Of a stretch of DNA of 64,000 bases, positions 10,706 through 39,444 are shown one piece after another. The notes beneath the pieces were generated by a model. That model had not been told where the DNA came from. It did no database searches and saw nothing but the letters and a program-made list of their open reading frames with translations. Position numbers and translations under genes: made by a program. How positions within the stretch are numbered: position 1 is the first letter of the stretch; the number at the start of each line of letters is the position of its first letter. The stretch is from an uncultured Candidatus Saccharibacteria bacterium (GTDB lineage: Bacteria; Patescibacteriota; Minisyncoccia; UBA6257; 1-14-0-10-44-23), in assembly GCA_964549935.1 (NCBI GenBank), contig CAZJVT010000001.1, forward strand, positions 155,922-219,921. Direction: 5' to 3'.

Positions 10706-11152
10706 ATGCAAAACCTCTCTGCCGCAAAACTACTCGGGTTTGCTGCTGCAGGGGTGCTACTTGTCGGAGTGGGTGTTTTGCTCGGAAGAGTTGATTTTTC
10801 TACTTCAAAACTTGTTCAGCAGGCGAATGGTTTTCGTTTGCTCGCCGAAGTGCCGCGCCAGACAAGCAGTTCAATCGTGAGCACTGCAGACGCTGCCAAG
10901 CCTGCCACTAAAAAATCAGGATTTGTCGCCGCGGCACAGGCCGTTTTTTCTGCCCGTAGCGTCGTAGCCGCAACGACAACGCCGGCTACAACCACAACTT
11001 CGACGATAGTTTTCGCGGCCAGGACATCGGAAATTTCTTTGCCTGTTGCGGATGACTGTAAATTTCAGACGAATCAGTTCCCAAATTACGAAAATTTAGT
11101 TTTAAACGAAATCGCCTGGATGGGCACGCCGGAGGACAGCGGCAACGAATGG
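10706..11152 (+). pseudogene. 5' fragment of a secreted lamin-tail-domain (LTD) protein gene, interrupted by the integrated element.
   Basis: N-terminal TM anchor and a low-complexity linker. The fragment ends ..YENLVLNEIAWMGTPEDSGNEW, exactly at the conserved LTD start (NEIAW..NEW-IEL), then runs into element DNA and stops at 11185. Confidence 0.6.
11143..11152. repeat. Left 10-bp direct repeat (caacgaatgg) at the insertion junction of the integrated element.
   Basis: The identical 10-mer occurs at 21371-21380. It encodes the N-E-W of the LTD motif on both sides. Confidence 0.6.
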
Positions 11153-11256
11153 CCTGTCCCGCAAAAGGATTACCGATATATCTAAAGGTCGATCTTTGTA
11201 AGAAAGAGCATACTTCTGCCGTTGTCTGAATTATCTTTCTTTGACATACTGGAACA

Positions 11257-13254
11257 ATGGATAAAAAGCGCCAATCACGAATTTACGAACTATTGAAGAA
11301 AGGACTAGCTCTTATAGGGGCTGGAGAAGAATTGCCTGTTGATTGGGCTAAAGAATTTTTCCCACCTGAGAGGAGAGAGTATGAGCTTGTTTATCATGGC
11401 AAAGAGTCAGAAGAAAATATTCTTGCTGACACGATGTCGGTTCCATTGCAGCCAGTTAGCAACTTTGGGGAGGATAACGGAGAGTGGGATAACAAGTTGA
11501 TTTTTGGAGATAATCTTCAGGCTATGAAAAAGTTGGTGGAGATGAAAGAAAGAGGTGAGCTGGTTAATGCAGACGGAACTTCTGGGGTTCGTTTGATTTA
11601 TATCGATCCTCCTTTTGCGACTAAAAGAGATTTTCATGGCACTAGAGATCAAGAGGCGTATCAGGATAAGATTGTTGGTGCTGAATTTTTAGAATTTCTC
11701 AGAAAGAGATTAGTTTTTTTAAGGCAGCTCATTGCTGAAGGCGGCACAATTTATGTGCATCTCGATTCTAGAAAGGGTCATTATATCAAGACGATTATGG
11801 ATGAGATTTTTAGCGGTTTCGAGTTTGCTGAAATCGCATGGGTTTGCGGTTTAATGGGTTCAGGCAAATACTATCCGAAAGCTCATGAAAATATTTATTG
11901 CTACAAGTCACCAAGGGCACCATTTAACCCTCCTCCGAGAATCGGTCTTTCTCAAAGGATCACCAAGGCTTTGCAAAAAGACAAAAATGGATGGTTCTAT
12001 ACACGAGGCAAAGAGAGCAGCGGAGGATCAAGTTATCTTAAATCTTACATTTGCTTAGATTCGAAATTGAGCAAAGAACAAGCAATCGAATTTGCCAATG
12101 AATATAGGCCTCAACAAGCATGGAGTGTTTGGATGGGCAAAAGAGAACTCGCTTATGAATTCAATGATTATCCAGTTGGAACCTATGCATATACAGGGAC
12201 CGAGAGCGTAGGATATCCAACTCAAAAGCCAGAAGCTTTGTTGGCGAGGATTATAAATGCTTCTTCTAACAAAGGAGATATCGTGCTTGATGCCTTCGCT
12301 GGTTCGGGAACGACATGCGCCGTAGCGGAAAAGCTAGGACGGCGTTGGATTGGAATTGATTGCGGTAAGTTATCTATCTATACAATCCAAAAGCGCTTGC
12401 TGAACCTTCGTTCAGAAATTGGTAATACGGGCGATCTAATAAAACCAAAACATTTTACGCTCTATAATGCAGGATTATATGATTTTGATTCTTTACGGAA
12501 ACTGCCGTGGGAAAGTTGGAGATTTTTTGCTTTACAGCTTTTCGGCTGCAAAGACGAAACGCACAAGATTAAGGGGTTTCATCTAGATGGCAAGAAGCAA
12601 GGTTACAGCGTCTTAGTTTTCAATCATTTTCAGAATGGGGTTATTAGTAGGGAGACGATTGAAGAGCTGCATGCACACATCGGGAAACAAATCGGCAATA
12701 AATGCTTCATCATAGCTCCTCGAGGTGCCTTTTTGTTTCAAGAAGATTATTTAGAGCTAGACAGCGTGAGATATTATGCGCTTCGTATTCCTTACTCATT
12801 TATCAACGATCTTCATGCGCGACAATTCTCTGCCCTTACTCAGCCAAATGATGAGACTGCTGTTAATGAAACTGTTGAGGCAGTAGGGTTTGATTTTATC
12901 CAAGCGCCCGCCGTGGATTACCAGCTCCAGCAAGTGGGAGAATTTACTTATTTGAAAATTAAAAAATTTGAAAGTCGGGCAAGAGTCCGCGGGAGCGATC
13001 AGAGGGGTGGGCTTGAAACATTTTCGATGCTTATGATTGATTCAAATTATGATGGCAAGGTTTTTGATCTGGATCAGGTATATTTTGCCCATGACATTGA
13101 AGTTGCGAAATGGCGGATGAAGTTGCCAACTGGTCGGGGAGACATTATGGCGGTATTTCTGGACATTTATGGTAATGAAGCTAGAATTCTTTTGCGAAAG
13201 GGAATACCCTTGAGAGCGCCTCGGAAAGTAGCTGTTAGGAAAAAACATGCCTAG
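11257..13254 (+). CDS. mod: Type III restriction-modification system N6-adenine DNA methyltransferase (Mod subunit).
   Basis: [29 protein letters not shown] (motif IV DPPF) and [11 protein letters not shown] (motif I). At 665 aa its size fits Mod. Confidence 0.85.
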
Positions 13255-15775
13255 AACAAATTCAAATCAGGAGAGTTTCCAAAATGAAGACCTCGTACTC
13301 AAGGTCAGTCCTGCTGTTGATCGGAGACGATGGGATGAGGATCGGTATGAGGCTTTTTTGGATGAACTTTGTGGTTCTCGTGAATTTCAGAAAAAAGCGA
13401 TCCAGACTGCATTGAGATATTTGCTTGGACAAGAATATTCTGATCTTAAAGAATTGGCTCATTCTAATTTTGAGCAGAACGAAATGCTCCCTAAAAGATA
13501 TGGGTCATGGGCTAATATGGAGAGGAATTTGCAATTACCCAAACAGCTTTCTGCCTCGCTTGATTTAGCAACGGGCACAGGGAAAAGTTATGTGATGTAT
13601 GGAATTGCTGCGATCATGCTTGCTGAAGGTGCAGTAGATCGAGTCTTGATACTTTGTCCTTCTACTACAATCGAAACGGGGCTCGTGGAAAAATTTAAGA
13701 ATTTAGCAGCTCAGGCCGATCTAAGAAATCTTTTACCTGCCGATGTTAAATTGAAATCTCCAAAGATTATAGATGCCCGTGAAAGCATAACCAGTGGCAG
13801 TATTTGTATTGAGAATTATCATGCAATTTTAGAGCATGTGCGTTCTTCAATCAGAGAAAGCTTGGAGGGTAAAGGCGAAAGAACATTAATTCTAAATGAT
13901 GAAGCTCATCATGTAGCTAATGAGAGTACTGCTAAGGTTGGAAAGTGGAAAGAATTTTTAACTGATAAGAAATTTAATTTTAAGTATATTATCGGCGTAT
14001 CGGGCACATGCTATATCAGCAATGAATATTTTACGGATGTCATTTTCCGTTACTCATTGCGGCAAGCGATGGACGAAGGTTTTGTGAAAAAAGTGCATTA
14101 TGTGGCAGAGATGCCGACGACATCAAGTCCTGATGTTAAGTGGCAGTTGGTTTTGAACCGACATAATGAGATCGGTAAGAAATTAAAGGTACGCAAAATT
14201 CGTCCTTTGACGATTGTCGTTACTCAGACTATCGAGAGGTGCAAAGATGTTGCCGAGGAGCTAAAGGCATTTCTCATGGATCAGTCTGGGAAAACTCGTG
14301 AGCAGATTGATGAACAGGTATTGGTTGTATACAATAATGCGCCTGATGTTTTAAGGCTTTCTTCTGTAGACTCAAATAAAAGTAAAGTAGAGTGGATTCT
14401 GTCTGTCTCAATGTTGAATGAGGGGTGGGATGTAAAAAGAGTTTTCCAAATTGTTCCTCATGAGGAGAGAGCATTTAATAGTAAATTGCTTATAGCACAA
14501 GTGTTAGGTCGAGGTTTGCGCAAGCCAGAGGGCTGGCAGGGCGAGCAGCCGCAAATTACAGTTTTCAACCATGATGCATGGGCTTCGAGAATTAAGAAGT
14601 TGGTTGACGAGATAACAGAGTCAGAGAAAAGAATACCGACTTTCCCTATCAAGAATTCTTCTCTAAATTTTGAATTACTTAATATTGAGTACGATCCTAA
14701 GCCATATACTACAACTTATCCGATGGAGCGTCCTTATCGTATCTTTACCAAAGGATATATCGATTTAGCAACAGAAAAACCTGTCGAAGATGTCAGTATT
14801 GAATTTGTAGATGCTGGCTCAGGGCTAAGAACAAATTGGAAAACGAAGATTAAGCACAAGACTCATTCAGTCAAGGAGGTTGTAGAAGTGATGCATCAGC
14901 GCTTAGAGGATGCTGATCATTTGATAAATCCTAATTCCAAAGACAGTGAGCATTATACAAGTCAGTTTCCTAGATCTAAACTCGAAGAAATCATTAAGGA
15001 GTCTCTTAAGATGGCTGGCGTTAAAGATATCACAGACGGAATCAGGCAAAAGTTTCTTCAATCTTTAGGAACTTTACAGCGTAAGGAGGCTCAGGTTGTT
15101 CGTTATAAGTTCGAAGTGCAGAAGTACTTTCCTGTTGCTACTCAAGATCGATCTGACGAGAGCGTGAGTGCTGCTGATTTAAGAAGTTCGAATAAGACTT
15201 TATTCTTTACTGCCAAGACAGTCGAGACGCTTCCTGATGAGTCTAAGGAGTTCTATGGAGAAGCTACTGAGCCGGGCAGCGGATTTAAGTGTTACCCTAT
15301 TTCGAATTATCATGATTTTAGAAGTCCGTTAAATGCAGTAATCGCCGATCATGAGAATGAACGTCGTTTTATCAAGGAGTTGATTAATACCGAGAATACT
15401 CCGCATATAGTAAGCTGGATTAAGTCTACATCAATGGGGTTTTATGAAATTGATTATGCATGGAAAAAAGGCGAGCATCCGAAGAGAGGGAAGTTCAACC
15501 CAGACTTTTTTGTGTTGACTAAAAAGTTAGTCTTGGTAGCTGAAATCAAAGATGATTTAGAATTGAATGATCCGTCTGAAGAGAATCGCAAAAAAAGTGA
15601 ATATGCTCAACAGCATTTCGAGAGGATCAATGCCTTTCTTGCTAAGAAGAAAGCTTCTGTTAGGTACAAGTTTAATTTTCTGACCCCTTCTGATTTCGGC
15701 GGTTACTTTCAAAGTATCCGTGATGATAGTGTTCAGAACTTTCGTTCTAAACTAGATGTGAAATTAGCTGAATAG
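13247..15775 (+). CDS. res: Type III restriction endonuclease Res subunit (SF2 helicase-like).
   Basis: Walker [12 protein letters not shown] and DEAH box [10 protein letters not shown]. Its start overlaps the mod stop by 8 nt. 842 aa. Confidence 0.85.
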
Positions 15776-16020
15776 TTTTTGTCCCTGAATCAAGTCCTTA
15801 AATTTACAAAGGAGCATCTCTATCCTATAGTTAAGGTACAATTTAATTGACCTAACCCATTCGAGCAATCGAATGGCACGGTCTTAAAACCAATCACGGC
15901 AGAAAGCTCCTAGTCAGAGCAACCGTGATTGGTCATATCTGGAAACGGATATGGGTGGCCCGAAAGGGTTTCATCGCTGGCTGGGAGCTTTGTGATTTCT
16001 GGCTGGCTCATTAACAATTT

Positions 16021-16194
16021 ATGAAAATAAAAACTTCGTGGGGGGATAACAAGAGATCATTAATTGCTCTTGCGATCTGGATTGGCTTTCTGTTCATCAT
16101 GAACAGCATGGGCATTCAGCTCGGTTTAGTCGTTAACCTACTTATTGCCGTAGTACTCTTTTACTTAGCGCATAAAACTAAGAAACATGAATAA
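16021..16194 (+). CDS. Small two-TM membrane protein (57 aa); its start overlaps the next gene.
   Basis: MKIKTSWGDNKRSLIALAIWIGFLFIMNSMGIQLGLVVNLLIAVVLFYLAH. ATGA-type overlap with the 16187 ORF. Confidence 0.35.
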   Translation: MKIKTSWGDNKRSLIALAIWIGFLFIMNSMGIQLGLVVNLLIAVVLFYLAHKTKKHE

Positions 16195-16540
16195 TCAGTA
16201 TGCTCGTAAGATAGCTTGGTTACTTCTTGTCGTAGTGGTAGTGCTGCTATACATGGCGGGCTTCTGGTCAGCAGTATGGTCGTTGTTTAAGTCATTGCTG
16301 CTGCTAATTATTGCACCGTTCTTTCTCTTCGGAGATTTGATTGAGAAGAATTCGGCTGTATTGAATTGGGTTGTAGGTCTCGGATTTGGCTTGATGGCGA
16401 TAGGACTTGTTCTACAAAATCAGCACTTCAAGAAAATCACAGGTAAGGAGTATCCGAAGCTTGTGAAATGGATTACGAGAATTGCAACTGTGGTAGTTGC
16501 TTTCAGCGGCATATCTCTTTTGCTTTCAAAATTGTTCTAG
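16187..16540 (+). CDS. Hypothetical membrane protein (3 TM).
   Basis: Hydrophobic segments LLLVVVVVLLYMAGFW, LLLLIIAPFFLFG and VVGLGFGLMAIGLVL. Confidence 0.5.
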   Translation: MNNQYARKIAWLLLVVVVVLLYMAGFWSAVWSLFKSLLLLIIAPFFLFGDLIEKNSAVLNWVVGLGFGLMAIGLVLQNQHFKKITGKEYPKLVKWITRIATVVVAFSGISLLLSKLF

Positions 16541-16619
16541 CGCTTGGCTAACCTTTTCAACCAGCATGCTTATCTCTTAAAATTAAGAGGTAGCATTCAT
16601 GTCATCGTGTTAATCGAAC

Positions 16620-17045
16620 ATGGCATTTCAAAAAGGAAACAAGTACGGTAAAGGAGCAAAGCCATCAAATGCAACATTGGCTCAGCGGAAGATGCGCGAG
16701 TGGCTGATGAAGCACCTAGAGAAAGACATGCCAGAGTTGTATCAAGCGCAGCTGTCTCTTGCAAAGGGATATCAGATACTGCTTGCTCGTCAATTTGAAA
16801 CAGATACGAAAACAGGCAGAAAGAGCAGAACTGGCAAATGGGTCATGATTACTGATCCGGAGGAAGCACTGCAACTTTTGAATGGTAACCAGAAAGATAT
16901 TTTCAAGATGGTTACGACAGAGCCAGATCCCAAGGCATCTTCGTACTTAATGAGCCAAGCAGTTGGAGCACCAACTCAAACTGTTGAGATGCCTGCATTG
17001 GCGGATTCATTAGTTGAGATTATCAGCCGAATGGATGCGGAATAG
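16620..17045 (+). CDS. Hypothetical protein. The Lys/Gly-rich N-terminus resembles phage small-terminase or DNA-binding proteins.
   Basis: MAFQKGNKYGKGAKPSNATLAQRKMREWLMKHLE..; resemblance is by pattern memory only. Confidence 0.35.
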   Translation: MAFQKGNKYGKGAKPSNATLAQRKMREWLMKHLEKDMPELYQAQLSLAKGYQILLARQFETDTKTGRKSRTGKWVMITDPEEALQLLNGNQKDIFKMVTTEPDPKASSYLMSQAVGAPTQTVEMPALADSLVEIISRMDAE

Positions 17046-17262
17046 CCGTATTACGAGAGAGGATAAACAGCTCCGTAGCAGAGCGTAATCAGCTCAAATT
17101 GGTATCTTTGCCTGCTTGATAGCAGGTTATCATTGGTTTCAGGGTAGAGAGCGTTATGCGTCATTTTAAGCTCGTTTTTGATCAAAACAGGTATTAAGGC
17201 AGGTAATACCTGCTGTTTTTGACAGTTTCGTATTAGAGGTCTAAACTCGGTTAAAACGAAGT

Positions 17263-17661
17263 ATGAAAGTACCCTTCGATATTTGCTGTCCAAACTGTCA
17301 CTTGCTTCTTCTCGAAGACGGTGTCCTTAGTGATCATGGAGAACCTCGTTACTTTGATTGTCAAAGGTGTTCTGTGACTTTCTCTCTTAACATGAGCAGT
17401 GTCGGAAGGCCCGATGAAGGTCAGAAAGGAATCAACGGCCAATTTGAATTCGAGCTTGTAATCGGTCCAGAGAAAGAGGGTCGGCGTTGGACGCAGCTGA
17501 ATCAGAATTTGCTTCCTGTCTTGAGCTGTCCGCTGATGGGTCGTATTGAAGTCGGTCAATCCATCGGAGGGCTATCTTATCTAGGAGACGACACCCCGTT
17601 GAACTGTAATTTCTGTGGTGCGAAATTCCTGACAAGGATTTTATATCAAGAGAGCGATTGA
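17263..17661 (+). CDS. Hypothetical zinc-ribbon protein.
   Basis: Cys pairs CCPNCH..CQRC..CNFCG arranged like a double zinc ribbon. Confidence 0.45.
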   Translation: MKVPFDICCPNCHLLLLEDGVLSDHGEPRYFDCQRCSVTFSLNMSSVGRPDEGQKGINGQFEFELVIGPEKEGRRWTQLNQNLLPVLSCPLMGRIEVGQSIGGLSYLGDDTPLNCNFCGAKFLTRILYQESD

Positions 17662-18024
17662 CTTTTTAATAAATTGCGCTATCATGACACTGTCGGTAAT
17701 TAAATAAGTGCTTGAGGAGCTGTCGGGAGGTGCTAGTGATTCCACGGAGTGGAAGTACCTAGCTTGTGAACAACAAGAAGGCCTTCGGTAGATCCAAACT
17801 AACTCTTTTTGAGTTAAGGTTTGGGTTTTCCGAGGGCTATTTTGTTTCTTGAACAAGAAGCGGATAGGCAAAATTGCGGTACGCGGACTGAAGTTCAATC
17901 CTGATATCAGCCCCAGCGTTCAGTCTGAAATCATCGACCAGCTGTTGGGCGTTTTAGGCATTGCCGGATTTGGTATGGGGCGGAGGGAGACAAGTAAAGG
18001 TCGAGCACCTCCGAACAGAAAAAT

Positions 18025-18414
18025 ATGAAACTCATACCCACAGGTAATTTTCTTATGGTTCCCAGTGAGCTGATTGAGGGCTATATGAAGAAAATGGAGT
18101 ATCCAGAGTTTTGCTTTTTTATGGCGCTGTTGATGTTGGCGCATAGGTATTCTGATGAATTCTATTGCTCAGACGAAAGAATCTCAAAAAAGTTCGGAAT
18201 CAGTAAGCGAACTATCAGCAGATGCCGTAAACAATTGGAATTGAAAAAGTTGATTGAATTCAATCCGGGATATCGTAATGGTAAGGCGGCACGAGCAACA
18301 ACTTATAAGATTTTCCCAAGTAAGGCCCTGCGGATCAAGTTGCGCATCAAGCAGCATGCCAAGTCGGCTCCTACCCAGCAAGCCAAGCGGGCAAGCCAAT
18401 TAAGAAACAAGTAG
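18025..18414 (+). CDS. Helix-turn-helix protein resembling the N-terminal HTH of phage or plasmid replication initiators.
   Basis: ISKKFGISKRTISRCRKQLELKKLIEF is an HTH. It is preceded by a 360-nt noncoding region with direct repeats. Confidence 0.45.
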   Translation: MKLIPTGNFLMVPSELIEGYMKKMEYPEFCFFMALLMLAHRYSDEFYCSDERISKKFGISKRTISRCRKQLELKKLIEFNPGYRNGKAARATTYKIFPSKALRIKLRIKQHAKSAPTQQAKRASQLRNK

Positions 18415-18453
18415 TTAATTAATAAAAGTAAATAACTTATTAACTTCGTTAAT

Positions 18454-18861
18454 ATGCAAAATCGAGATTTTAAGGAGAAGCTGGATCAATTCAGGAAAGA
18501 ACATCTAAAGAAATACAAAGCTCAGTCAGATGTGCAAAAAGTCGTAGAGTTCTTTTTCCTCGTTAAGGATTTTCGAAAGACCCTTAATTGGAAGCCGCCG
18601 TTTGCCCAGAATGTCAGGGTTGCTAAACAGATCATCGAGTGGGCAAGAGGCGATTTAATAAGGGCATATGGACTCATTTATGACTGCTCACTGTATTTTG
18701 AAGAGAAGAAGTTGCACGACTGGGGCTTGAACGGTGTTTATAGGTCCATACCTGCGTATAAGGAGAATAGGATTTATCATCAGCACGAGAATCTATCTGA
18801 AGAGCAGCAGTCCGAAATTGAAGAGGCAAGAACACGAAAGCGTATTGCAGAGATGAGCTAA
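18454..18861 (+). CDS. Hypothetical protein (135 aa).
   Basis: Clean ORF with protein-like composition inside the element; no recognisable motif. Confidence 0.4.
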   Translation: MQNRDFKEKLDQFRKEHLKKYKAQSDVQKVVEFFFLVKDFRKTLNWKPPFAQNVRVAKQIIEWARGDLIRAYGLIYDCSLYFEEKKLHDWGLNGVYRSIPAYKENRIYHQHENLSEEQQSEIEEARTRKRIAEMS

Positions 18862-18921
18862 CACCGTTGTTAACAGTCGTCCTTTAGAGGTTCTTTCGTA
18901 TCTCTTATTATTAAACGAAAT

Positions 18922-19704
18922 ATGAAAAATCTCTCTCAGGAGATACAAAGGCAGGCCTACGGCTATATTCGTGTCAGCACATCAGAGCAAAGCGAGAGTG
19001 GTTTGGGCTTAGATGTTCAGCAAAGTCAGATTGAGAAATACTGCAAAGACAAAGGCATTGAGTTAATAAAGATTTTTGAAGATCCGGGCTTTTCAGGTGC
19101 CGATGCTGATCGTCCGGGTCTTCAGAGTCTGATTATTCAGGCAAAGAGCAACGGTGTAAACCTGATACTGCTGGCTCACTCAAGCCGTCTTGCAAGAGAT
19201 TCAATGCTTGCAGAAATTATCTATCGTGATTTGAGAAAAAACGGCATTACCCTTGTCTCGGTTGCACAGCCAAGCTATTACGAAGAAGACGGAGACTTTC
19301 AGAGAAAGCTCGTCAGGACGATTCTAAGTGCTTTTGACGAATACGAGAAATCACTGATTAGTTGGAGACTTAAAAACGGTAGAGCAAAAAGAGTTGAGCT
19401 AGGAGGTTGGCATGGAGGCTGGGTTTACGGTTATCGGCACGGCAAAAAAGGCAAGCTCATAATCAACCAGAAAGAGGCCGACACAGTGAAAAAAATGTTC
19501 TATCTCCGTAAAAGCAAACGAATGAGTCATACGGGGATTGCTAGGGTGCTAAACAGTGAGGGCATTCCAACTAAAAAGAAAGATGCAAAGTGGCACAGTG
19601 CCACGGTTAAGAAGATGTTGAATAATCCGATTTACAAAGGGCTGCTTAATTATCGAGGTAAGACATATCAAGGTCATCATGAAAAAATCATTAAAGACGA
19701 ATGA
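18922..19704 (+). CDS. Serine recombinase with a resolvase catalytic domain plus a partial recombinase domain, and no zinc ribbon or coiled coil.
   Basis: YGYIRVSTSEQSESGLGLDVQQSQI holds the catalytic Ser region. GGWHGGWVYGYR..PIYKGLL is recombinase-domain-like. Confidence 0.8.
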   Translation: MKNLSQEIQRQAYGYIRVSTSEQSESGLGLDVQQSQIEKYCKDKGIELIKIFEDPGFSGADADRPGLQSLIIQAKSNGVNLILLAHSSRLARDSMLAEIIYRDLRKNGITLVSVAQPSYYEEDGDFQRKLVRTILSAFDEYEKSLISWRLKNGRAKRVELGGWHGGWVYGYRHGKKGKLIINQKEADTVKKMFYLRKSKRMSHTGIARVLNSEGIPTKKKDAKWHSATVKKMLNNPIYKGLLNYRGKTYQGHHEKIIKDE

Positions 19705-21385
19705 ACGAAGTCAACAAAAACGAGCCGCAATCTATTGCCGTGTTTCTAGCGATGAGCAGGTTAGAGGATACAGTTTGTCTACTCAGCAAGATCAGATTAC
19801 TGAGGTCATTGAAAAAGACAGTCTAAGCTTAGACAGCAAAAATGTTTTCGTCGACGATGGGTATACTGGCACCACCGACAACAGGCCTGCTTTGCAGAAG
19901 ATGATTGAGCAAGCCAAGAAAAAACAGATTGATGTCATATATGTTTGGAAGATTGACCGGCTCTACAGAAATACGAAGCTTATCCTTGGCTTAGTCGACG
20001 AACTACTTAAGTACGATGTCAGCGTCAAGTCGATTTTAGAGCCACATTGTGATAACTCAGACCCGAGAAGCCGTTATGTATTTACGATGCTTGCAGCTGG
20101 AGCAGAGATGGAACACGCGACCATTAAGGAGAGGACTCAGGGAGGCAAGGTCAGGGCCATGAAAGACGGCAAATGGGCTGGCATTGCGCCTTATGGCTAT
20201 GATGTTGACGCAGAGACTAAAAAGCTCATTATCAATGAGCATGAGGCACGCTGGGTAAGGAAGTTTTTCCAGTGGTTTGTTAACGAGAGAATGACATTAC
20301 ACAGATTGCAGGTTCGCATTAATGCTTCCAGCATACCGTCGAAGCTAGACAACCTTGCTGAAAAGAAAACTAAGCACGGTCGTCGTTATCAGCAGAAAAC
20401 TAGGAATGACAAGTTTTTCTGGGCAAAGAGAACGATAGACCGAATACTGACCAGAGAGATGTATGCAGGCACTCATGTTTTCAGGCAATACGATTCTCGG
20501 AGCAAGGCCATGACGGAATCCAATATGCGACCTCAGTCAGAGTGGATTCCAGTTTCGGTGCCAGCGATTGTAAGTCGAGAGATTTTTGATGCGGCTCAAA
20601 AACTGCTTAAGCGCAATAAGCGAGATTCACCAAGACGAACTTCTAGGGTTTATCTTTTCGGTAAGAAACTTGAGTGTGGTTTTTGCCATCGTCGTCTTCA
20701 GTCTGATTACGCTAGGCCTAAAATACGGAAAGACGGGACAAGAAAAGAGGATTACAACTACTACATAGGATCTTGGCATTGTGGTGGATACACGAATAAA
20801 AGATGTGAACATTGCGTAAGATACAATGAGAACAATTTGCGAGAGCCGATTTGGAATAGCATAGTCAAGCTACTTTCAAGTCCAGAGCTTGTCATAAATC
20901 TGATTTTGGAAGGTAGGTCTCAAAAAGAGGGAACATCAAATTTAGGGGAGCTTATTGTCAGCTACGAAAAAAGAGAAGTTGGATTCAAGATGCGCGAAGA
21001 GAGACTGTTGAACCTTCATCTTAGCGGTGAGCTTGATTTAGAGATTTACAGGAAAAAGAAAGCAGAGATAAAGGAACAGCGGCAAGAATTTGATAACGAG
21101 AAAAGGCGGATAGAGAATCTAGCAATTAACGAAGCAGAGAAGCGCAATAGAGTAGTTTCCGCAAAAGCGATCTATCGTAAACTTAGAGAACGATTAGCAA
21201 CAGCGACTTATGAACAGCAGGCGAATATTATTAAGGTTCTAGTTGAAAATATCGTTCTGAATGATCAGGAGGCAGAGATTGAGGTTAATCTTCCATTGAA
21301 AGAAGTTGTTCCACAATTCGTTGCTCGAATAGAAGCTAGTGATAAAAGTCCCGAAGTTTTGTGTGACAACCAACGAATGGATTGA
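19679..21385 (+). CDS. Large serine recombinase (integrase type) with a recombinase domain, zinc ribbon and C-terminal coiled coil.
   Basis: AAIYCRVSSDEQVRGYSLSTQQDQI; zinc ribbon CGFCHRRLQ..WHCGGYTNKRCEHC; coiled coil EIYRKKKAEIKEQRQEFDNEKRRIENL. Its start overlaps the previous recombinase by 26 nt, and its 3' end abuts the right junction. Confidence 0.85.
   Translation: MKKSLKTNERSQQKRAAIYCRVSSDEQVRGYSLSTQQDQITEVIEKDSLSLDSKNVFVDDGYTGTTDNRPALQKMIEQAKKKQIDVIYVWKIDRLYRNTKLILGLVDELLKYDVSVKSILEPHCDNSDPRSRYVFTMLAAGAEMEHATIKERTQGGKVRAMKDGKWAGIAPYGYDVDAETKKLIINEHEARWVRKFFQWFVNERMTLHRLQVRINASSIPSKLDNLAEKKTKHGRRYQQKTRNDKFFWAKRTIDRILTREMYAGTHVFRQYDSRSKAMTESNMRPQSEWIPVSVPAIVSREIFDAAQKLLKRNKRDSPRRTSRVYLFGKKLECGFCHRRLQSDYARPKIRKDGTRKEDYNYYIGSWHCGGYTNKRCEHCVRYNENNLREPIWNSIVKLLSSPELVINLILEGRSQKEGTSNLGELIVSYEKREVGFKMREERLLNLHLSGELDLEIYRKKKAEIKEQRQEFDNEKRRIENLAINEAEKRNRVVSAKAIYRKLRERLATATYEQQANIIKVLVENIVLNDQEAEIEVNLPLKEVVPQFVARIEASDKSPEVLCDNQRMD
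21371..21380. repeat. Right 10-bp direct repeat (caacgaatgg).
   Basis: Identical to 11143-11152. Confidence 0.6.
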
Positions 21386-22409
21386 GCTGCGCAATGCTAG
21401 CGATACTGCAATAAATGTCGGCGGATACTGGGTGATTGATAAAGCAGAACAGATTAAGGCGCATCTGCCAGAGAAGGTGCTCGGTCCGGGTGAATTTTAT
21501 TTACTGGAACGCGGCGATGACGCGGTGCCGTCATCAACGGCTGATTTTATATATACAGGCGGGTTAAGTAATAGTAACGAGGGGGTCCGCGTGTATGATC
21601 CAACCTGCACGCTCGTTGACCAGGCGCTCGCTGAACCGAAGTGGCCTGCCGGCGCTACCTCGCAGAAACGTAGCATGGAGCGCGGGGGTGATTGGCGGTG
21701 GTACAGCTACCAGGGCGAAGCCGTGAATGCAATTTTTGGCACGCCAAAGGCAAAGAATACTGCGCCAAATACGGCCGCGGGGCAGTATTTCCCGCCGCCA
21801 GTTGTAATCTCGACCCCGGCAATCGCCGAAGCCACCTCTTCGAGTACGACAAGTACTGCAGAATTAGCGAGCGCGGCAAACGTCATCATTCCGGACGCAC
21901 CGGAGTCAGACTCCGGTACTGATACGGGTGCAGGGCAGAGCGTGACGGGCTTGGATCACATCGTGATTAGTAGCGTGCAAACGACCGGCGGTTTGGGGCA
22001 TACCACCGAAGACTTTGTCGAGCTCTACAATCCGCTGGCAACGCAATTTAATTTAAAAGGTTCTCGTTTGGTGAAGCGCACGAAGGTTGGCACGAGCGAT
22101 ACCTCGCTCAAATCCTGGACAGACGATGCTTTCATCCCAAGCGGGGGAAGATATCGCTGGGCCAATACCGGATACCCAGGGAGTGCGGACGTGCGCACAA
22201 GTGGGAGTATCGCTGATGACAACGCGGTTGCGCTCCGACAAGGCAGCGAGGATACCGGAGTCATTATCGATGCAGTTGGTTGGGGGCAGGCGAGCAATGC
22301 TTTAGTTGAGTCCTCTCCGTTTAGCACCAACCCGACTGTCGGGCAGGTCTTAGCTCGTAAGCAGTGGGTTGATACAAGTAGCAACGCTTCGGATTTTGAA
22401 ATCCGTTGA
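21381..22409 (+). pseudogene. 3' fragment of the interrupted LTD protein gene, with two lamin-tail domains.
   Basis: Continues ..(NEW)IELRNASDTAINVGGYWVIDK..GEFYLLERG..GGLSNSNEGVRVYDP, with a second LTD at ..DFVELYNP..NLKGSRL. An in-frame ATG at 21339 inside the integrase 3' end could drive a truncated product. Confidence 0.6.
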
Positions 22410-22417
22410 TTTTTCTT

Positions 22418-22470
22418 GATTGTACTATTCGCGCGAATGGTACAATCAAGTCTTTTTGGGTTTTTAAATA
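22418..22470 (+). terminator. Rho-independent terminator after the LTD gene.
   Basis: Near-perfect 34-nt palindrome ttgattgtactattcgcgcgaatggtacaatcaa followed by gtctttttgggttttt. Confidence 0.6.
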
Positions 22471-30997: not shown

Positions 30998-31237
30998 CTA
31001 CATTCCCTGCAACTGTTTGTAGATATCGAGCGAGCTTAGGAATTGCGGGATTGCGATGAGCAGTCCGAGCAGGGGAAGGACGGTGACGATGAGGGTAATA
31101 ATGAGCGTCCACTTAAAGAACTTGCGCATCTTCTCGGAAGACTTGTAGACCGCGTCTAACTTTTGCTCCATCGCCGTAAAGCGCTGGTCGAAGTTTAGAT
31201 TTGCAGTTTGAGCCGGTGCCGGGGTTTGTTCGTCCAT
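30998..31237 (-). CDS. Hypothetical small membrane protein.
   Basis: C-terminal TM WTLIITLIVTVLPLLGLLIAIPQF. Confidence 0.4.
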   Translation of the reverse strand: MDEQTPAPAQTANLNFDQRFTAMEQKLDAVYKSSEKMRKFFKWTLIITLIVTVLPLLGLLIAIPQFLSSLDIYKQLQGM

Positions 31238-31245
31238 AATTTTGT

Positions 31246-31539
31246 TTAGCGGTTTTTATTTTCTTGTGCGAATTTCTTTTGCGCCTCTTTCGCTATTTCG
31301 ATACACTCCTGCGGGTCGTAACCCAGGTCGTCGCACCAGCGGATAGTTGAGAAGATCATATTGCCGAGCTCCTTCTTGAGGTCGGCGTCGGTGTGGGTGC
31401 GGGCGTCTTTTTCTGCGCCGCGCTCGTATCTGCAGAGATCGCCAAGGTTTTTACCCAAGCGGACGATGATTCGTGAAAGCGAGAGCTTTTCATCGCCCCA
31501 GATCTGCCGACTCTCTGCCAAGAGGCCCTTAATGTCCAT
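31246..31539 (-). CDS. MazG-like nucleotide pyrophosphohydrolase domain protein.
   Basis: Small all-alpha protein; KELGNMIFSTIRWCDDLGYDP fits the MazG/NTP-PPase EEXXE/D region. Confidence 0.5.
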   Translation of the reverse strand: MDIKGLLAESRQIWGDEKLSLSRIIVRLGKNLGDLCRYERGAEKDARTHTDADLKKELGNMIFSTIRWCDDLGYDPQECIEIAKEAQKKFAQENKNR

Positions 31540-31606
31540 GCTTTTAGTATATCAGAAATGGAGTAAGCACTTTGCATTTGTAGGAAAGCGGGGTTATAGT
31601 GTGCGT

Positions 31607-32368
31607 ATGACTACACTTTATATTTATCTAGTGATTTTCGCCTTTATATTACTTGTTATTAGTATTCGGCAGATTAACCAGTATGAACGGGGGGTGAAGT
31701 TCACGCTTGGTAAATTTACTAAATTAATGGAACCCGGATGGCGCTTAGTCATTCCGATTTTCCAGAGTTATAAGAAAGTAGATATTCGCGTCAAAGCCGT
31801 TGACGTGCCAGACCAGAAGGCGATTACGCGTGACAACGTTTCGGTTACCGTAAACGCAGTGCTTTATTACAAGGTGTTTGCGGCCGAAAAAGCGGTTATT
31901 GAGGTTGAGGATTTTCAGTATGCTATTTCGCAGTACGCCCAGACGACTATGCGCAACATTGTCGGTGAGGTAACGCTTGATGAGCTGTTAGCGAATCGTG
32001 ACAAGATCGCCGAGCGTATCCGTGAGATTGTCGACGTTGAAACTGACGCCTGGGGTCTTAAAGTAAATAACGTTGAACTCAAAGACGTTAGCTTGGCTGA
32101 AAATATGGCCCGCACGATTGCGAAGCAGGCAGAGGCAGAGCGCGAGAAGCGTGCGGTTATCATCAACTCTGAGGGTGAGGTTGCTGCCGCGGAAAATATG
32201 GCTAAGGCCGCCGGCATTCTTTCGGCGGTACCGGGCGCCCTACACTTGCGTACACTTCAGACGATTAATGATGTCTCCTCTGATGAGTCCAACACGATGA
32301 TTTTTGCGATACCGATTGAGATTTTGAAGGCGCTTTCCGGCTTCGGGAAGAATGCTAAAGGAGAGTAG
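31607..32368 (+). CDS. SPFH/band-7 (stomatin-like) membrane protein.
   Basis: N-terminal TM then the SPFH domain: ERGVKFTLGKF..AITRDNVSVTVNAVLYYKV...LKDVSL and a coiled-coil tail. Confidence 0.8.
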   Translation: MTTLYIYLVIFAFILLVISIRQINQYERGVKFTLGKFTKLMEPGWRLVIPIFQSYKKVDIRVKAVDVPDQKAITRDNVSVTVNAVLYYKVFAAEKAVIEVEDFQYAISQYAQTTMRNIVGEVTLDELLANRDKIAERIREIVDVETDAWGLKVNNVELKDVSLAENMARTIAKQAEAEREKRAVIINSEGEVAAAENMAKAAGILSAVPGALHLRTLQTINDVSSDESNTMIFAIPIEILKALSGFGKNAKGE

Positions 32369-32612
32369 TTTCTCGGGCTTTTTCTGGCCGGATTTTTTCG
32401 CTATTGAAAAAAAGCCCGCGAAATAGTAAGCTTTACGGACAATTTAATATTCTGGAGTAGTTAGTGGGTTTTGGCCACCAGGCCAAAACGGGCAACTTCC
32501 ATAAAACTACTAGAAGGAATTGGTTGCCCTGGAAGATCGCCGAGCGCGAGGCGTTCTACCAGCGGATAATAGATTTATTAGAAATATCGTGGTTTCTCAA
32601 AACTAAATACAT

Positions 32613-32892
32613 TCCGGAGTAGTTCAGTGGTAGAACGCCTCGCTGTAAAGGTATTGCAGCTTTCAGCCGAAAGGTTGATTGAAAAATCTTGGGATAACGG
32701 TGGAGTCCTACTTTTGTAGGAGAATACCGTGGGAACTGGAATATATCATATATGATATATTCTGGAGCGCCGTAGAGACTAGATACCAGGAGACCTAAAA
32801 CGCAAGTCATGGTCGTGATATAGTCCACCCCTTTCAGTAATGAGAGGACACGTGTAACGAGGATGTCGTAGGTTCGATCCCTACCTCCGGAG
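32613..32892 (+). tRNA. tRNA-Asn(GUU) gene interrupted by a group I intron between anticodon positions 35 and 36. Exons are 32613-32646 and 32855-32892; CCA is not encoded.
   Basis: The spliced sequence folds as a canonical tRNA: acceptor tccggag/ctccgga, D-arm gttc-agtggta-gaac, anticodon stem cctcg/cgagg, loop cuGUUaa, variable atgtc, T-arm gtagg-ttcgatc-cctac, discriminator G. These match the E. coli tRNA-Asn D-arm, anticodon loop, variable loop and discriminator G exactly. Confidence 0.7.
32647..32854 (+). ncRNA. Group I (IC3-like) self-splicing intron in the tRNA anticodon loop; 208 nt with no ORF.
   Basis: Internal guide sequence gcagc (32656-60) pairs with the 5' exon end gctgU, with a U.G wobble at the splice site. 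Core GCCGTAGAGACTAGATACC...CCTAAAACGCAAGTCATGG...TAGTCC matches the conserved P7/P3 region of bacterial tRNA group I introns. The intron ends in G. Confidence 0.65.
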
Positions 32893-32928
32893 CTGACATT
32901 TTTAGGAGACTTGGAGTATACTTTTTTT

Positions 32929-33411
32929 ATGAAGGTTTACTGTATTGGTGGAGGATCCGGCACTGGCAAAACAACCGTTTGTGAAGAGTTGAAGAGAAGG
33001 GGCTACCAGGTTGTGGATGCCGATGAAGAGTTGGCATTTTTTGCTGATCCAAAGACTCGTTTACCTGTAAACGAGAAGACCACGCATTGGCTGTGGGATA
33101 AAGAAGAATTTCTTGCAGCAATTCAGAAGGGTCAGAACGAACCTGTCTTTGTTTGCGGGGGAGCAACGAATCAGGACGAGTTCAAAGATCATTTTGAAAA
33201 GATGTTCACGTTGCACGTAGACGATGCCGTGCTTAAGCATCGCCTTTTAACGAGAACTAACAATGACTTTGGTAAGGATCCAAAAGACTTAGCTCAGCAG
33301 CTTGAGTGGAATAAGAATGCAATTACATATGCCAAGCAGCGGGGCACGACGCTTATCGATGCAACAAGACCGCTCAAGGAGGTGGTAGACGAGATATTGC
33401 GTTTGCTTTAA
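32929..33411 (+). CDS. P-loop NTPase, putative nucleotide or nucleoside kinase.
   Basis: Walker A CIGGGSGTGKTTV; small kinase-like size; RBS aggaga upstream. Confidence 0.5.
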   Translation: MKVYCIGGGSGTGKTTVCEELKRRGYQVVDADEELAFFADPKTRLPVNEKTTHWLWDKEEFLAAIQKGQNEPVFVCGGATNQDEFKDHFEKMFTLHVDDAVLKHRLLTRTNNDFGKDPKDLAQQLEWNKNAITYAKQRGTTLIDATRPLKEVVDEILRLL

Positions 33412-33434
33412 CCTAAGGATGTAAAAATAAATCG

Positions 33435-33839
33435 ATGAAAGAAGTAATAATCGACGGGAATAACTTTTCAAGCAGAGGTGGCTTTATGCTCGAGATCCGC
33501 AGAAAATTCGCCAAAGATTTAGGTTGGGCGGATTATAATTCCGCAGGTGAAGTCAACCTTGATGGAGTTAATGATTTTCTAAGAGGTGGATTTAATGTTT
33601 ACGACTATGAAGAAAAGGTTCGAGTATTATGGAAAAATTCGGCAAAAAGTAAAATCGACCTCGGGAAAGAAGAAACACTAAAATATCTTGAGCATATATT
33701 AAAGCGCTGTCATTCGACTAATATTGAACATGTGAAGAAAGAAATCGAGGCGGTCAAAGAAAATAGGGGTCTTTTGCTTTTTGATCGAATCCTAGGACTT
33801 TTCGCTGATAAGCCATATATTGAGCTGCGCTTGGAGTAG
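33435..33839 (+). CDS. Barstar-like ribonuclease inhibitor (immunity) family protein with a C-terminal extension.
   Basis: MKEVIIDGNNFSSRGGFMLEIRRKFA..DYNSAGEVNLDGVNDFLRGG..VRVLWKN follows the barstar pattern (VIxG..I.S...h...L...L..P.YYG.NLDAL.D.L). Confidence 0.5.
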   Translation: MKEVIIDGNNFSSRGGFMLEIRRKFAKDLGWADYNSAGEVNLDGVNDFLRGGFNVYDYEEKVRVLWKNSAKSKIDLGKEETLKYLEHILKRCHSTNIEHVKKEIEAVKENRGLLLFDRILGLFADKPYIELRLE

Positions 33840-33897
33840 AATTTAGACAAACTAAAAGAAAGTTCTAATTTCCTTAGCCAAAGGGTATACTTTTGCT

Positions 33898-34323
33898 ATG
33901 GCAACAATAAATCCTTGGATTAACTTCAACGGCAACGCCGAAGAAGCGTTTACGTTTTATAAATCAGTCTTTGGCGGAGAGTTCGCCAAGGTTATGCGTT
34001 TTAAGGACCTAGCGGGGCCTGAATTTCCGGTAGCAGAAAAGGAGGCGAATAAAATAATGCATATTGCTCTGCCAATCGGCAACAATTTTTTAATTGCCAA
34101 CGACGTTCCGGAAGTTATGGGACGCGTAAATGAGAATGAGAACAGGAGTAAGATTGCGATTAGCGCAGAAAGTAAGGAAGATGCGGATAGGTTATTCGCC
34201 GGCCTTTCGGCGGGTGGGCAGGTAGAAATGCCAATTGCTGACAGTCCTTGGGGTTCCTATTTCGCAATGTTTAGAGATAAGTACGGGATTGAGTGGACAG
34301 TTGAATTTTCTCCGGGGAAATAG
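33898..34323 (+). CDS. VOC/glyoxalase-family protein (PhnB-like).
   Basis: INPWINFNGNAEEAFTFYKSVFG..IMHIALPIGNNFLIAND..EDADRLFAGLSAGGQVEMP. Confidence 0.65.
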   Translation: MATINPWINFNGNAEEAFTFYKSVFGGEFAKVMRFKDLAGPEFPVAEKEANKIMHIALPIGNNFLIANDVPEVMGRVNENENRSKIAISAESKEDADRLFAGLSAGGQVEMPIADSPWGSYFAMFRDKYGIEWTVEFSPGK

Positions 34324-34363
34324 AGCATCTCTGACAGAGGCCAATACCTAGGGCCTCTATTAT

Positions 34364-34615
34364 TCACCTATGCGTACACCCCGCCCAGCAGCAGGGGCGG
34401 CGCATGCCGTCTTCCATTTTAGAAATTGCTTTTTCGATTCGGATATTACGGGTTTCGGCTTTTTTACCGGAGGTAACCCAACAAATCCACTCGTTGCGGG
34501 CGAGCGGGGTGATATCTTCCCATAGTGCCTTCACTGCAGGCACTCTAACGAGCTCCTTTTGCAAGTCCTCGGGTAATTTGTGTACTGTGCCGCTGGCGAT
34601 TTTTTTGCTCTTCAT
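34364..34615 (-). CDS. YdeI/OmpD-associated family small protein (PF13376-like).
   Basis: LPEDLQKEL..P.A...W..LTPLARNEWICWVTSGKKAETRNIRIEKAISKMEDGMRRPC. Confidence 0.55.
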   Translation of the reverse strand: MKSKKIASGTVHKLPEDLQKELVRVPAVKALWEDITPLARNEWICWVTSGKKAETRNIRIEKAISKMEDGMRRPCCWAGCTHR

Positions 34616-38338: not shown

Positions 38339-38340
38339 CT

Positions 38341-38739
38341 ATGATTAATCAAAAAAAGAAAATTTTGATCGTTGAAGACGAGGCTCCGCTCCGCCAGGTT
38401 CTTAAGGATAACTTACAAGAGGAGGGGTATAAGGTTGTCGAGGCTACTAACGGCGCACAGGGGCTTCGTCAAGCCGAAAAAGAAAAGCCTGACCTTATTC
38501 TGCTTGATATTTTGATGCCGAAAATGAATGGTCTGACGATGATGGAGAAATTTCGAACTACGCCAGCCGGGGCAAACGTTCCGATTATGCTCCTCACGAA
38601 CGTTTCTGCCGATCGAAAAATCATTAAGAATCTGGTGAAGTATATGCCGGTTTATTATTTTGATAAATCAAGCAGGACGATCGCCGAACTGATTATACGC
38701 ATCAAAGCACGCTTTGATACTGACGCAGAGCTCGTTTAG
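38341..38739 (+). CDS. Single-domain response regulator (CheY-like receiver).
   Basis: KILIVEDEAPLRQVL..PDLILLDILMPKMNG..TMMEKFR; the start overlaps the kinase stop. Confidence 0.85.
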   Translation: MINQKKKILIVEDEAPLRQVLKDNLQEEGYKVVEATNGAQGLRQAEKEKPDLILLDILMPKMNGLTMMEKFRTTPAGANVPIMLLTNVSADRKIIKNLVKYMPVYYFDKSSRTIAELIIRIKARFDTDAELV

Positions 38740-38748
38740 TAAAAGTCT

Positions 38749-39135: not shown

Positions 39136-39231
39136 ACTCTTTAAGCCGAGCGAGAAAAGCTTTCATTACGAAGTATGAGTATAGCCGCGCGTAATTTCAT
39201 TCATTCTAAACCGTCGTATATACTATAAATA

Positions 39232-39444
39232 ATGAAGTACGTAAAATATCACAACGATGGCAGCGTTTGGGCGAAGGGGACTTTAGTGAAGGGTATAATG
39301 GAGGGTAAGTGGATTTGGTTCAGAAAAGATGGGAGTAAGATGCGGTCAGGTAGTTTTAAGAAAAATAAGCAGGTTGGGGAGTGGATTACATACGACAAGA
39401 AAGGAAAGGTAGTTAAGAAAACAAAATTTAACATTAATAATTAA
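39232..39444 (+). CDS. MORN-repeat-like small protein (YwqK-antitoxin-like repeat pattern).
   Basis: GxWxxxxxxG repeats: DGSVWAKGTLVKGIMEGKWIWFRKDGSKMRSGSFKKNKQVGEWITYDKKGK. Confidence 0.45.
   Translation: MKYVKYHNDGSVWAKGTLVKGIMEGKWIWFRKDGSKMRSGSFKKNKQVGEWITYDKKGKVVKKTKFNINN

Follow-up and report, generated by a model that had tools for sequence, protein, structure and literature searches.

The window analysed here is a stretch of 64,000 nucleotides (nt) from contig CAZJVT010000001.1 (positions 155,922 to 219,921) of an uncultured Candidatus Saccharibacteria bacterium. It contains an integrative element of 10.2 kb, referred to below as the island, which is inserted precisely within a host lamin-tail-domain (LTD) gene. 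The backbone of the island is formed by six small open reading frames (ORF1 to ORF6), an RNA of the LOOT family and two serine recombinases. This gene content is tentatively read, with a probability of roughly 0.45, as that of a satellite-like 'hitcher' element: a small-terminase-type gene has been kept and virion genes are absent, therefore the island probably spreads by borrowing a phage. A satellite-like element and not a prophage had been proposed in an initial annotation of this DNA, and it is still the best fit.

The island extends from about 11153 to 21380 and is low in guanine plus cytosine (GC), the GC fraction passing from ~0.50 to ~0.41 between roughly 11,000 and 21,400. A 10-bp core, CAACGAATGG, is identical at its left end (attL, 11143-11152) and at its right end (attR, 21371-21380). 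The host gene is split into a left half (10706-11152, plus strand) and a right half (21381-22409, plus strand). The left ORF ends in ...NEIAWMGTPEDSGNEW, from where the sequence is foreign, and the right one picks up at ...NEW/IELRNASDTAINVGGYW; the called product of the right half matches PF00932 (LTD) by itself. Joining 10706-11152 to 21381-22409 gives a protein of 491 amino acids (aa) with a single Pfam LTD match (aa 127-230, E 3e-18) that spans the junction at aa 149/150 without break, therefore the element was inserted precisely in the LTD gene. Directly 3' of the host gene (22415-22450) lies an 18-nt palindrome, perfect-looking and with a T-run, which is probably its intrinsic terminator. 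All island genes are on the plus strand, in the order Mod, Res, a gap of 245 nt that houses the LOOT RNA, the six ORFs, a serine recombinase of 260 aa and a large serine recombinase of 568 aa; the other two long gaps measure 217 and 363 nt.

The large serine recombinase (19679-21385, plus strand) contains the Resolvase (4e-36) and Recombinase (2e-14) domains and matches the integrase family phrog_95 (9e-104), with a sub-threshold zinc-ribbon match (E 0.03). The marks of a large-serine-recombinase element were found together: these domains, a short identical core at both junctions and a target that is restored when the flanks are rejoined. Its reading frame is closed by a stop codon 5 nt past the attR core; the protein has 568 aa in the integrated form and a predicted 592 aa, with another C-terminus, on the excised circle, where the frame reads into 11153-11230. 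In the reconstructed attP the best dyad symmetry covers 12 of 25 positions (null 6.3, sd 2.2) and its centre is inside the core. The short recombinase (18922-19704, plus strand) has Resolvase and Recombinase domains without zinc ribbon or coiled coil, shares 29% identity with the N-terminal half of the large one and overlaps its gene by 26 nt. This paralogue may be a relic of truncation or serve as an accessory subunit.

No large terminase, portal, capsid, tail or other structural phage gene was found in the island when all ten proteins were compared with Pfam and the eight outside the restriction-modification (RM) pair with PHROGs, as the initial annotation had stated for structural genes. 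ORF3 (16620-17045, plus strand) has 141 aa and starts MAFQKGNKYGKGAKPSNATL. An exhaustive HMMER search, carried out for ORF3 only, gave 81 relatives at E<=1e-3 and 21 at E<=1e-10, with identities of 24-41% and lengths mostly of 100-250 aa. The family is characterized by an N-terminal basic motif of the G-x-G-R-P-K-G type (degenerate in ORF3, GKGAKPS), by AQ..LA.G, and by the further motifs RTG.W..VTDP.EI..LLNG, YY.I.T..PD and L.DQA.GKP; ORF3 spans all of its conserved blocks. No annotated Pfam or PHROG family and no curated profile of the small terminase subunit (TerS) was matched by the ORF3 family.

Gene context was interpretable for six relatives of ORF3, all in independent phage contigs, and all six contexts hold the large terminase subunit (TerL). 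In locus L124 the relative overlaps the start of TerL (Terminase_3 8e-13; phrog_2 7e-40), in L123 it abuts TerL (phrog_2 2e-30) and in L129 a single gene of 67 aa lies between it and TerL (phrog_2 8e-30). In L250/L251 the relative is followed by a 485-aa homologue of the L129 TerL, a portal-like gene and a capsid gene, the last identified in L251. In L258, a phage contig of 46 kb, it opens a rightward module, 1.7 kb upstream of TerL and of a 686-aa gene of portal size, and in L128 the gene after it has a weak Terminase_6N match. A portal-sized gene is present downstream in two of the six contexts. The position typical of TerS, directly upstream of TerL, was observed for relatives of ORF3 and not for ORF3 itself. 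A metagenome scan with the ORF3 family identified three loci, one of which is the same phage as L124. A small-terminase-type protein had been guessed from the N-terminus of ORF3, and this guess is supported by the packaging modules headed by its relatives in the six phage contigs.

The AlphaFold model of ORF3, built from the family alignment, has a predicted local distance difference test score (pLDDT) of 80 and a predicted template modelling score (pTM) of 0.44, and comprises one long helix, a beta-hairpin and three additional helices. In BFVD the model matched three proteins only, all from uncultured phages (E 2e-7 to 5e-6), and one of them is named terminase small subunit. By its sequence, ORF3 can be placed in a phage family that occupies the small-terminase slot, and it probably acts as TerS.

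The six ORFs were found on the plus strand exactly over 16021-18861, as first annotated, and all carry coding signal. Between 15776 and 18921, 74% of the sequence is covered by plus-strand ORFs of 55 aa or more, whereas 300 dinucleotide shuffles gave a coverage of 23% (sd 11, max 62%). A codon model was trained on the four large genes of the island (0.27-0.31 bits per codon); under it, the annotated frame of each ORF scores 0.03-0.28 bits per codon and each of its five alternative frames scores below zero; ORF3 and ORF6 (0.28) are on par with the large genes and ORF4 is the weakest (0.03). That some or all of the six are chance open frames is suggested by this near-zero score of ORF4, by the lack of Shine-Dalgarno motifs at the six starts, by a word-indexed search of 5.8 billion proteins in which ORF3, ORF5 and ORF6, the three queried, matched only themselves, and by the lack of relatives of ORF1, ORF2 and ORF4 in about 125 LOOT-bearing loci, where no relative of any of the six was identified. 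The self-only result is no proof of orphan status, because the exhaustive search gave ORF3 its 81 relatives. These relatives, the frame-specific coding signal, the coverage relative to the shuffles, a profile match of ORF5 at 4e-9 and the ordered cysteines of ORF4 leave chance frames with hardly any probability. The six frames neither lack both homologues and coding signal nor include a helix-turn-helix (HTH) protein of a plain regulator family, the two outcomes under which the initial annotation was to be given up.

ORF5 (18025-18414, plus strand) is a basic winged-helix protein of 129 aa with 28 lysines and arginines against 10 aspartates and glutamates. It matches HTH_36 at E 5e-5 (23.4 bits, below the Pfam cut-off of 25) and, among PHROGs, the DnaD-like helicase loader phrog_186 (4e-9) and the O-like replication initiation protein phrog_678 (4e-8). 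Three further replication-initiator families were matched at 1e-6 to 4e-6, including phrog_270 (1e-6); the matches to PHROGs 186, 678, 270 and 428 range from E 4e-9 to 3e-6, and Rep families were among the matches. All of these cover only the N-terminal 80-105 positions of profiles that have 280-455 positions, lying at about 30-135 of 300-350 positions in the DnaD-like and O-like profiles. The C-terminal 150-250 residues of the DnaD-like and O-like families, with the helicase-interaction domain, are absent, as ORF5 ends at 129 aa. Because the matches are restricted to the N-terminus, ORF5 is best described as a predicted DNA-binding winged helix alone, like the N-terminus of DnaD-like and O-like replication proteins. 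The likeness to replication-initiator N-termini given for it at first was borne out by these families. The profile families initially expected were only in part recovered, HTH_36 (just below cut-off) and replication families by ORF5 but no TerS profile by ORF3. The proposal of a replication module was not borne out, because no primase, helicase or iterons were found: Pfam and PHROGs gave no primase or helicase domain in the island, and only scattered two-copy repeats of 10-16 nt were seen in 15700-19000 when iterons or an origin were looked for. A sequence search of PDB gave nothing useful for ORF5, and a tblastn comparison of ORF5 and ORF6 with 50,697 phage records gave no match.

ORF6 (18454-18861, plus strand) is a predicted all-helical orphan of 135 aa directly upstream of the recombinases, without relatives or family in Pfam, PHROGs, the word-indexed search and the PDB sequence search. 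Its single-sequence AlphaFold2 model (pLDDT 57) was not usable. From its position, ORF6 may be a candidate excision helper. A split full-length DnaD-like protein made of ORF5 and ORF6 was considered and rejected; neither is similar by BLASTP to the DnaD-like protein of locus L203 described below, and ORF6 has no profile match. A possible seventh gene of 59 aa with a TTG start (17849-18028, plus strand) lies in the gap of 363 nt between ORF4 and ORF5 and overlaps the start of ORF5 by 4 nt; it scores 0.18 in its own frame and negative in the others, and no family match was found for it.

ORF4 (17263-17661, plus strand) is an acidic protein of 132 aa. The double zinc ribbon first assigned to it is confirmed for one complete CxxC...CxxC set (C9/C12/C33/C36), but the second set has only three cysteines (C89, C115, C118), and all zinc-ribbon profile matches are sub-threshold. 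The two small membrane proteins of the initial annotation were both recovered by ORF calling and coding score. ORF1 (16021-16194, plus strand) has 57 aa, about two hydrophobic spans and a basic C-terminus; it is holin-like in shape only, with no match to a holin or any other family. ORF2 (16187-16540, plus strand) has 117 aa and about four spans, starts 8 nt before the end of ORF1 and gave no family match. None of the six ORFs matched a PADLOC defence family.

The gap upstream of ORF1 houses an RNA of the family LOOT (Rfam RF03000), a candidate small RNA of unknown function. The Rfam match (15849-15972, plus strand) covers model positions 1-121 of 121, scores 81.2 bits (E 1e-13), where the gathering score is 46.4, and ends 49 nt upstream of ORF1. 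With a 3' extension the RNA reaches 15994. In this extension a tail (15977-15990), beyond the 3' end of the Rfam match, pairs with the loop of helix P2 (15904-15917); the helix has 14 bp and is a pseudoknot because it crosses P2. Among 122 aligned LOOT sequences the 14 pairs are formed in 91-93% of cells and 12 of them have compensatory changes (one pair, as an example, is GC in 52 sequences, CG in 37, AU in 17 and UG in 10), a support equally good as that of helix P3 (97% paired). Helices P0, P1 and P3 covary. The MAFFT alignment mis-registers the variable helices P2 (51% paired) and P4 (34% paired), therefore only P0, P1, P3 and the pseudoknot are well supported. A U-rich run (UUUGUGUUU) follows the pseudoknot arm and is terminator-like. 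The island RNA is a bona fide member of the LOOT family.

Transcription units can be drawn from promoter- and terminator-like sites, which come from consensus scans only. A promoter-like site (TTTACA-17 nt-TATAGT, 15803-15831, plus strand) lies 18 nt upstream of LOOT, on its 5' side. Between ORF3 and ORF4 (17188-17247, plus strand) there is a terminator-like hairpin (17188-17214) and then a promoter-like site (17219-17247), and another such site is found at 17658-17685, in the gap ahead of ORF5. This arrangement suggests three units: a first one with promoter, LOOT, ORF1-ORF2 and ORF3 that ends at the hairpin 17188-17214; a second one formed by the site at 17219 and ORF4; and a third one with the site at 17658, a leader of 363 nt, ORF5, ORF6 and both recombinases.

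The occurrence of LOOT elsewhere was surveyed with a strict DNA pattern derived from its consensus, which replaced a first, looser pattern that gave mostly chance matches. It identified four IMG/VR contigs (L004, L080, L121, L125) and at least 120 loci in GTDB species representatives (L130-L249). Four strict-pattern matches were re-scanned and all four were confirmed by Rfam (73-91 bits). Among the matches listed, 63 of 80 are from Patescibacteria, including Saccharibacteria, Levybacteria, Gottesmanbacteria, Uhrbacteria and Paceibacterota; from this distribution alone, the island would probably be assigned to a patescibacterial host. The counts that follow describe a sample of about 125 loci of up to 8 kb each, in which ORFs were called mechanically and clustered by BLASTP. 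A serine recombinase was identified within 8 kb in 50 of the loci listed, an association that presumes such recombinases to be uncommon in 8-kb stretches taken at random from these genomes. The recombinase is upstream and divergent in 39 cases, downstream on the same strand, as in the island, in 11, and placed otherwise in only 2. An ORF on the same strand follows LOOT in 95 of 115 loci, starting at a median of 28 nt after its tail, and a hydrophobic span is present in 65% of these ORFs against 24% of other ORFs (Fisher p 1e-15). The families of the following gene vary: DUF4352 (Pfam), NucS-like (weak Pfam match) and, by inspection, SHOCT/PH-like and transmembrane proteins. ORF1 and ORF2 of the island fit this pattern of LOOT plus membrane protein. 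From its position, LOOT is more readily understood as a leader or 'moron' unit than as a small RNA on its own, and it appears to mark mobile elements in Patescibacteria. The association of LOOT with recombinases and membrane-protein genes and the pseudoknot are solid computed results; the 14-bp pseudoknot with the 3' tail, the clustering with serine recombinases and the position upstream of genes for membrane or secreted proteins go beyond the RF03000 match. No discussion of LOOT genomic context was found in the literature searched, the supplement of the original description lying outside that search.

An N6/N4 methylase is present in 22 of the approximately 125 loci, often fused to a ParB-like domain, and an HTH protein of TerS-like type in 23 (HTH_Tnp_1_2 2e-7; weak Sf6_terminase). 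The gene of the latter is often followed by that of a TerL-like protein of about 500 aa, recognised by inspection (P-loop-type GFRGSAKST and HDDLADAF motifs); the BLASTP cluster C1 mixes these HTH proteins with the neighbouring TerL-like proteins. The triad of ParB-like methylase, HTH TerS-like protein of about 135 aa and TerL-like protein adjoins LOOT in L171, L210, L233, L232, L125, L004 and others, and no portal or capsid gene was visible in the 8-12 kb around the triad loci. HTH-type TerS candidates of cluster C1 were not found in the phage loci with ORF3 relatives; the TerL beside the ORF3 relative of L123 and that of the LOOT-bearing contig L004 share 38% identity. Smaller groups comprise XRE regulators, RadC/JAB-like proteins (by reading), DUF5659, a rolling-circle Rep (PF23343), AAA_25 and XerC-like proteins.

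This diversity bears on the possibility that the island is an integrative element independent of phages, plasmid-like or 'LOOT-type', which is excised by its serine recombinase and moved, for example, by transformation. ORF3, ORF4 and ORF5 would then be DNA-binding regulators or partition or replication factors, not packaging proteins. LOOT elements are heterogeneous, with Rep plus Zot-like proteins (by reading, in L080), AAA_25 and XerC-like recombinases; four loci (L178, L180, L234, L243) have the TerS-like HTH protein beside the ParB-methylase with no TerL-like gene in view, which suggests that small DNA-binding proteins of this kind do not necessarily imply packaging; and the fold of ORF3 is unmatched among solved TerS structures. 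Set against these points, the relatives of ORF3 occur in phage-type contexts only, six of six with TerL, and profile scans detected no relaxase, conjugation gene, partition ATPase or plasmid Rep in the island. A phage-independent element is rated as unlikely.

An element of similar layout is L203 (2037-6939), which comprises LOOT, a transmembrane protein, a 267-aa protein, DUF5659, a 54-aa protein, a full-length DnaD-like protein of 249 aa, an excisionase-like HTH protein of 60 aa and a large serine recombinase. The 249-aa protein matches phrog_2514 (3e-14) and phrog_186 (7e-11), the latter being the family matched by ORF5. The recombinase ORF of L203 runs into the host flank, by inspection a ychF-like GTPase gene. 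Organisation and one PHROG family are shared with the island, with no pairwise sequence similarity to the six-ORF block. In L183, L194 and L224 the gene slot before the recombinase is occupied by a rolling-circle Rep. Because L203, L183, L194 and L224 hold such genes there, the slot of ORF5 and ORF6 is read as the replication/excision slot of a class of LOOT/recombinase elements. The same block beside other defence cargo, which the initial annotation had proposed to look for, was not found by the word-indexed search with ORF3, ORF5 and ORF6 or in the approximately 125 LOOT loci; only the organisation recurs, in L203.

Two IMG/VR contigs complete this comparison. L004 contains a tRNA, a large serine recombinase, TerL, the HTH TerS-like protein, the ParB-methylase, LOOT, a transmembrane protein and a type I RM system, and it is the same kind of package as the island but with TerL. 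A TACAATTTAAT motif, akin to the promoter-like site of the island, is found upstream of its LOOT. L080 (7.3 kb) contains LOOT, a Rep-like protein of 255 aa, a P-loop protein of 255 aa and several small transmembrane proteins, adjoining a divergent XRE-type regulator; the labels Rep-like, Zot-like and 'inovirus-like' for this contig come from reading the sequence. LOOT occurs in L080, therefore it is not tied to one type of mobile element.

The left part of the island is occupied by a type III RM pair on the plus strand, Mod (11257-13254) and Res (13247-15775), whose genes overlap by 8 nt. Mod matches N6_N4_Mtase (2e-41) and Res matches ResIII (1e-16) and RE_endonuc; in PADLOC they match MTase_III and REase_III. 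Methylase and helicase/endonuclease are in one operon, as in type III systems. The initial annotation had treated the six-ORF block as cargo; this part of it is abandoned, since the ORFs belong to the element backbone, and accessory cargo is more likely represented by the RM pair at the left end. It is very improbable that all six genes are accessory, with no part in the life cycle of the element itself. ORF1 and ORF2 do fit the variable, cargo-like unit of LOOT and a membrane or secreted protein gene, and ORF4 and ORF6 are without assignable role, but ORF3 is of packaging type, ORF5 belongs to a replication-type family and the slot before the recombinase holds replication/excision genes in similarly laid-out elements. 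RM systems, for their part, are what such elements typically carry as accessory genes (PMC10085698).

The island might also be a decaying remnant of a larger temperate phage or LOOT-type element that lost TerL and the virion genes, so that ORF3 and ORF5 would be leftovers and only the RM system and membrane proteins would now account for the retention of the island. ORF5 looks truncated, with 129 aa against family profiles of 250-350 aa and the 249 aa of its L203 counterpart; the 260-aa recombinase is without the C-terminal domains of its 568-aa neighbour; there are the three long gaps; the coding score of ORF4 is weak; and many LOOT loci carry TerS and TerL, so the loss of TerL is a simple step. 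Decay is nonetheless doubtful, as no recognisable gene fragments or frameshifts were seen in the island, its genes all run in one direction with close spacing, no domain is missing from the full-length recombinase, the two att cores match perfectly and the halves of the host gene can be rejoined with nothing lost. ORF3, moreover, is full across the conserved blocks and scores as high as the large genes.

Several observations weigh against the satellite-like reading itself. The small-terminase role of ORF3, predicted from its sequence family, rests on the gene position of its relatives and on one database name; neither sequence-profile nor Foldseek comparison matched it to solved TerS structures in PDB, and in L258 three other genes lie between the ORF3 relative and TerL. 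A terS on its own could be all that remains after deletion of a prophage. An ORF3-type gene in an island lacking TerL was not found a second time, and ORF1, ORF2, ORF4, ORF5 and ORF6 share the lack of relatives in LOOT loci, with self-matches only for ORF3, ORF5 and ORF6 in the word-indexed search. ORF5 stops after its DNA-binding domain, and a helicase-loader domain is missing from the scans along with primase, helicase and iterons. No AlpA-, Stl- or MerR-type regulator was recognised among the six ORFs (Pfam, PHROGs, NCBIfam), ORF4 or ORF5 being possible analogues of such regulators, and no helper phage is visible within the 64-kb window. Neither the rejoined host protein nor the recombinase in its circle form was recovered by exact look-up, a comparison of low power.

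As a satellite-like element, the island would stay integrated while its RM system and LOOT-led membrane proteins are expressed, the RM system protecting the cell. Upon infection by, or induction of, a related phage, the large serine recombinase would excise the element. Large serine recombinases need a directionality factor for excision; none was identified in the island, ORF6 or ORF4 being the positional candidates. ORF5 would bind an origin or operator in the element, and ORF3 would mark the element DNA and direct the large terminase and capsids of the helper phage to it. Phage satellites of the type of Staphylococcus aureus pathogenicity islands (SaPIs) use such a strategy: the TerS encoded by the island directs the large terminase of the helper to SaPI DNA.

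A broader and more speculative reading, considered improbable as a whole, combines three proposals: that LOOT marks a family of serine-recombinase elements present throughout Patescibacteria, that the island is a member of it with only the small terminase subunit, and that LOOT is a regulatory or immunity RNA, as is the CI RNA in satellite P4. A pseudoknotted, terminator-ended RNA would then head a variable membrane or secreted 'cargo' gene, and the island could be the first phage satellite of the candidate phyla radiation (CPR). 

Patescibacteria, or CPR, make up a large share of bacterial diversity and their mobile elements and phages are barely described; in the literature searched, no report that combines Patescibacteria, prophages and serine recombinases and none of phage satellites in CPR was found. 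The ends of the island, attB (in the LTD gene) and the attP core are defined, which makes the pair of recombinase and att sites directly testable. The orphan RNA LOOT gains a context and a structural feature, from which a leader/attenuator or an element immunity RNA can be hypothesised, and the ORF3 family, whose 81 representatives carry no annotation, becomes a candidate for the small terminase of uncultured phages.

Outside the island the window holds ordinary chromosomal sequence, including, by reading of the translations, gyrB, nusG, secE and the genes for L11, L9 and L27. Other stretches of lower GC (0.41-0.47) are found in the host chromosome at 31000-34500 and 36000-41000. The same sequence is present in two Logan assemblies. 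Three features described here lay beyond the initial annotation: the LOOT RNA (15849-15972), the exact ends of the island and the possible seventh ORF (17849-18028).

Among known systems, the closest are the phage-inducible chromosomal islands (PICIs), whose core set comprises an integrase, alpA/merR/stl regulation, a primase-replicase, capsid morphogenesis genes and TerS (PMC10085698). Carriage of defence systems by satellites is documented, serine-type integrases are treated as exchangeable with the usual tyrosine type, and more than 99.9% of the surveyed PICIs are from Proteobacteria or Firmicutes (PMC10085698). Like SaPI-type PICIs, the island is of about 10 kb, is integrated site-specifically with the integrase at one end (the 568-aa recombinase, the 10-bp cores and the split LTD gene), has no recognised virion or lysis genes (no tail, holin, portal or connector gene was detected) and contains a candidate gene of small-terminase type without TerL, a replication-type DNA-binding protein and a defence load. 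As for TerS without TerL, the ORF3 family is found in the TerS slot and TerL is absent from the island, with ORF3 unmatched by curated TerS profiles. Capsid morphogenesis genes are absent from the island, as in SaPIs. Unlike PICIs, it has a large serine recombinase in place of a tyrosine recombinase, no detected primase-replicase, AlpA/Stl/MerR-type regulator or capsid-remodelling gene, and no protein detectably homologous to PICI core proteins; unlike the surveyed PICIs, its host belongs to Patescibacteria. A comparison with PICMI satellites was dropped, as these have no terS (PMC10803314). By analogy, the island would work most like a SaPI-type PICI, yet it is not classed as one; its integrase is present in serine form, its TerS is putative, and the regulator and primase-replicase were looked for and not found.

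A second comparison is with the prophages and islands integrated by large serine recombinases, such as phiC31, Bxb1, A118 and the SCCmec type. The island shares with them the insertion in a protein-coding gene, a short identical core, the recombinase at the very end and a second recombinase paralogue. Unlike the phages it has no virion genes, it has no resistance cargo, and relative to the known elements its recombinase ORF crosses attR, so that the C-terminus differs between the integrated and excised forms. The types of parts are known, whereas this combination and lineage were not described in the literature searched. As an integration system, the island is an ordinary large-serine-recombinase element.

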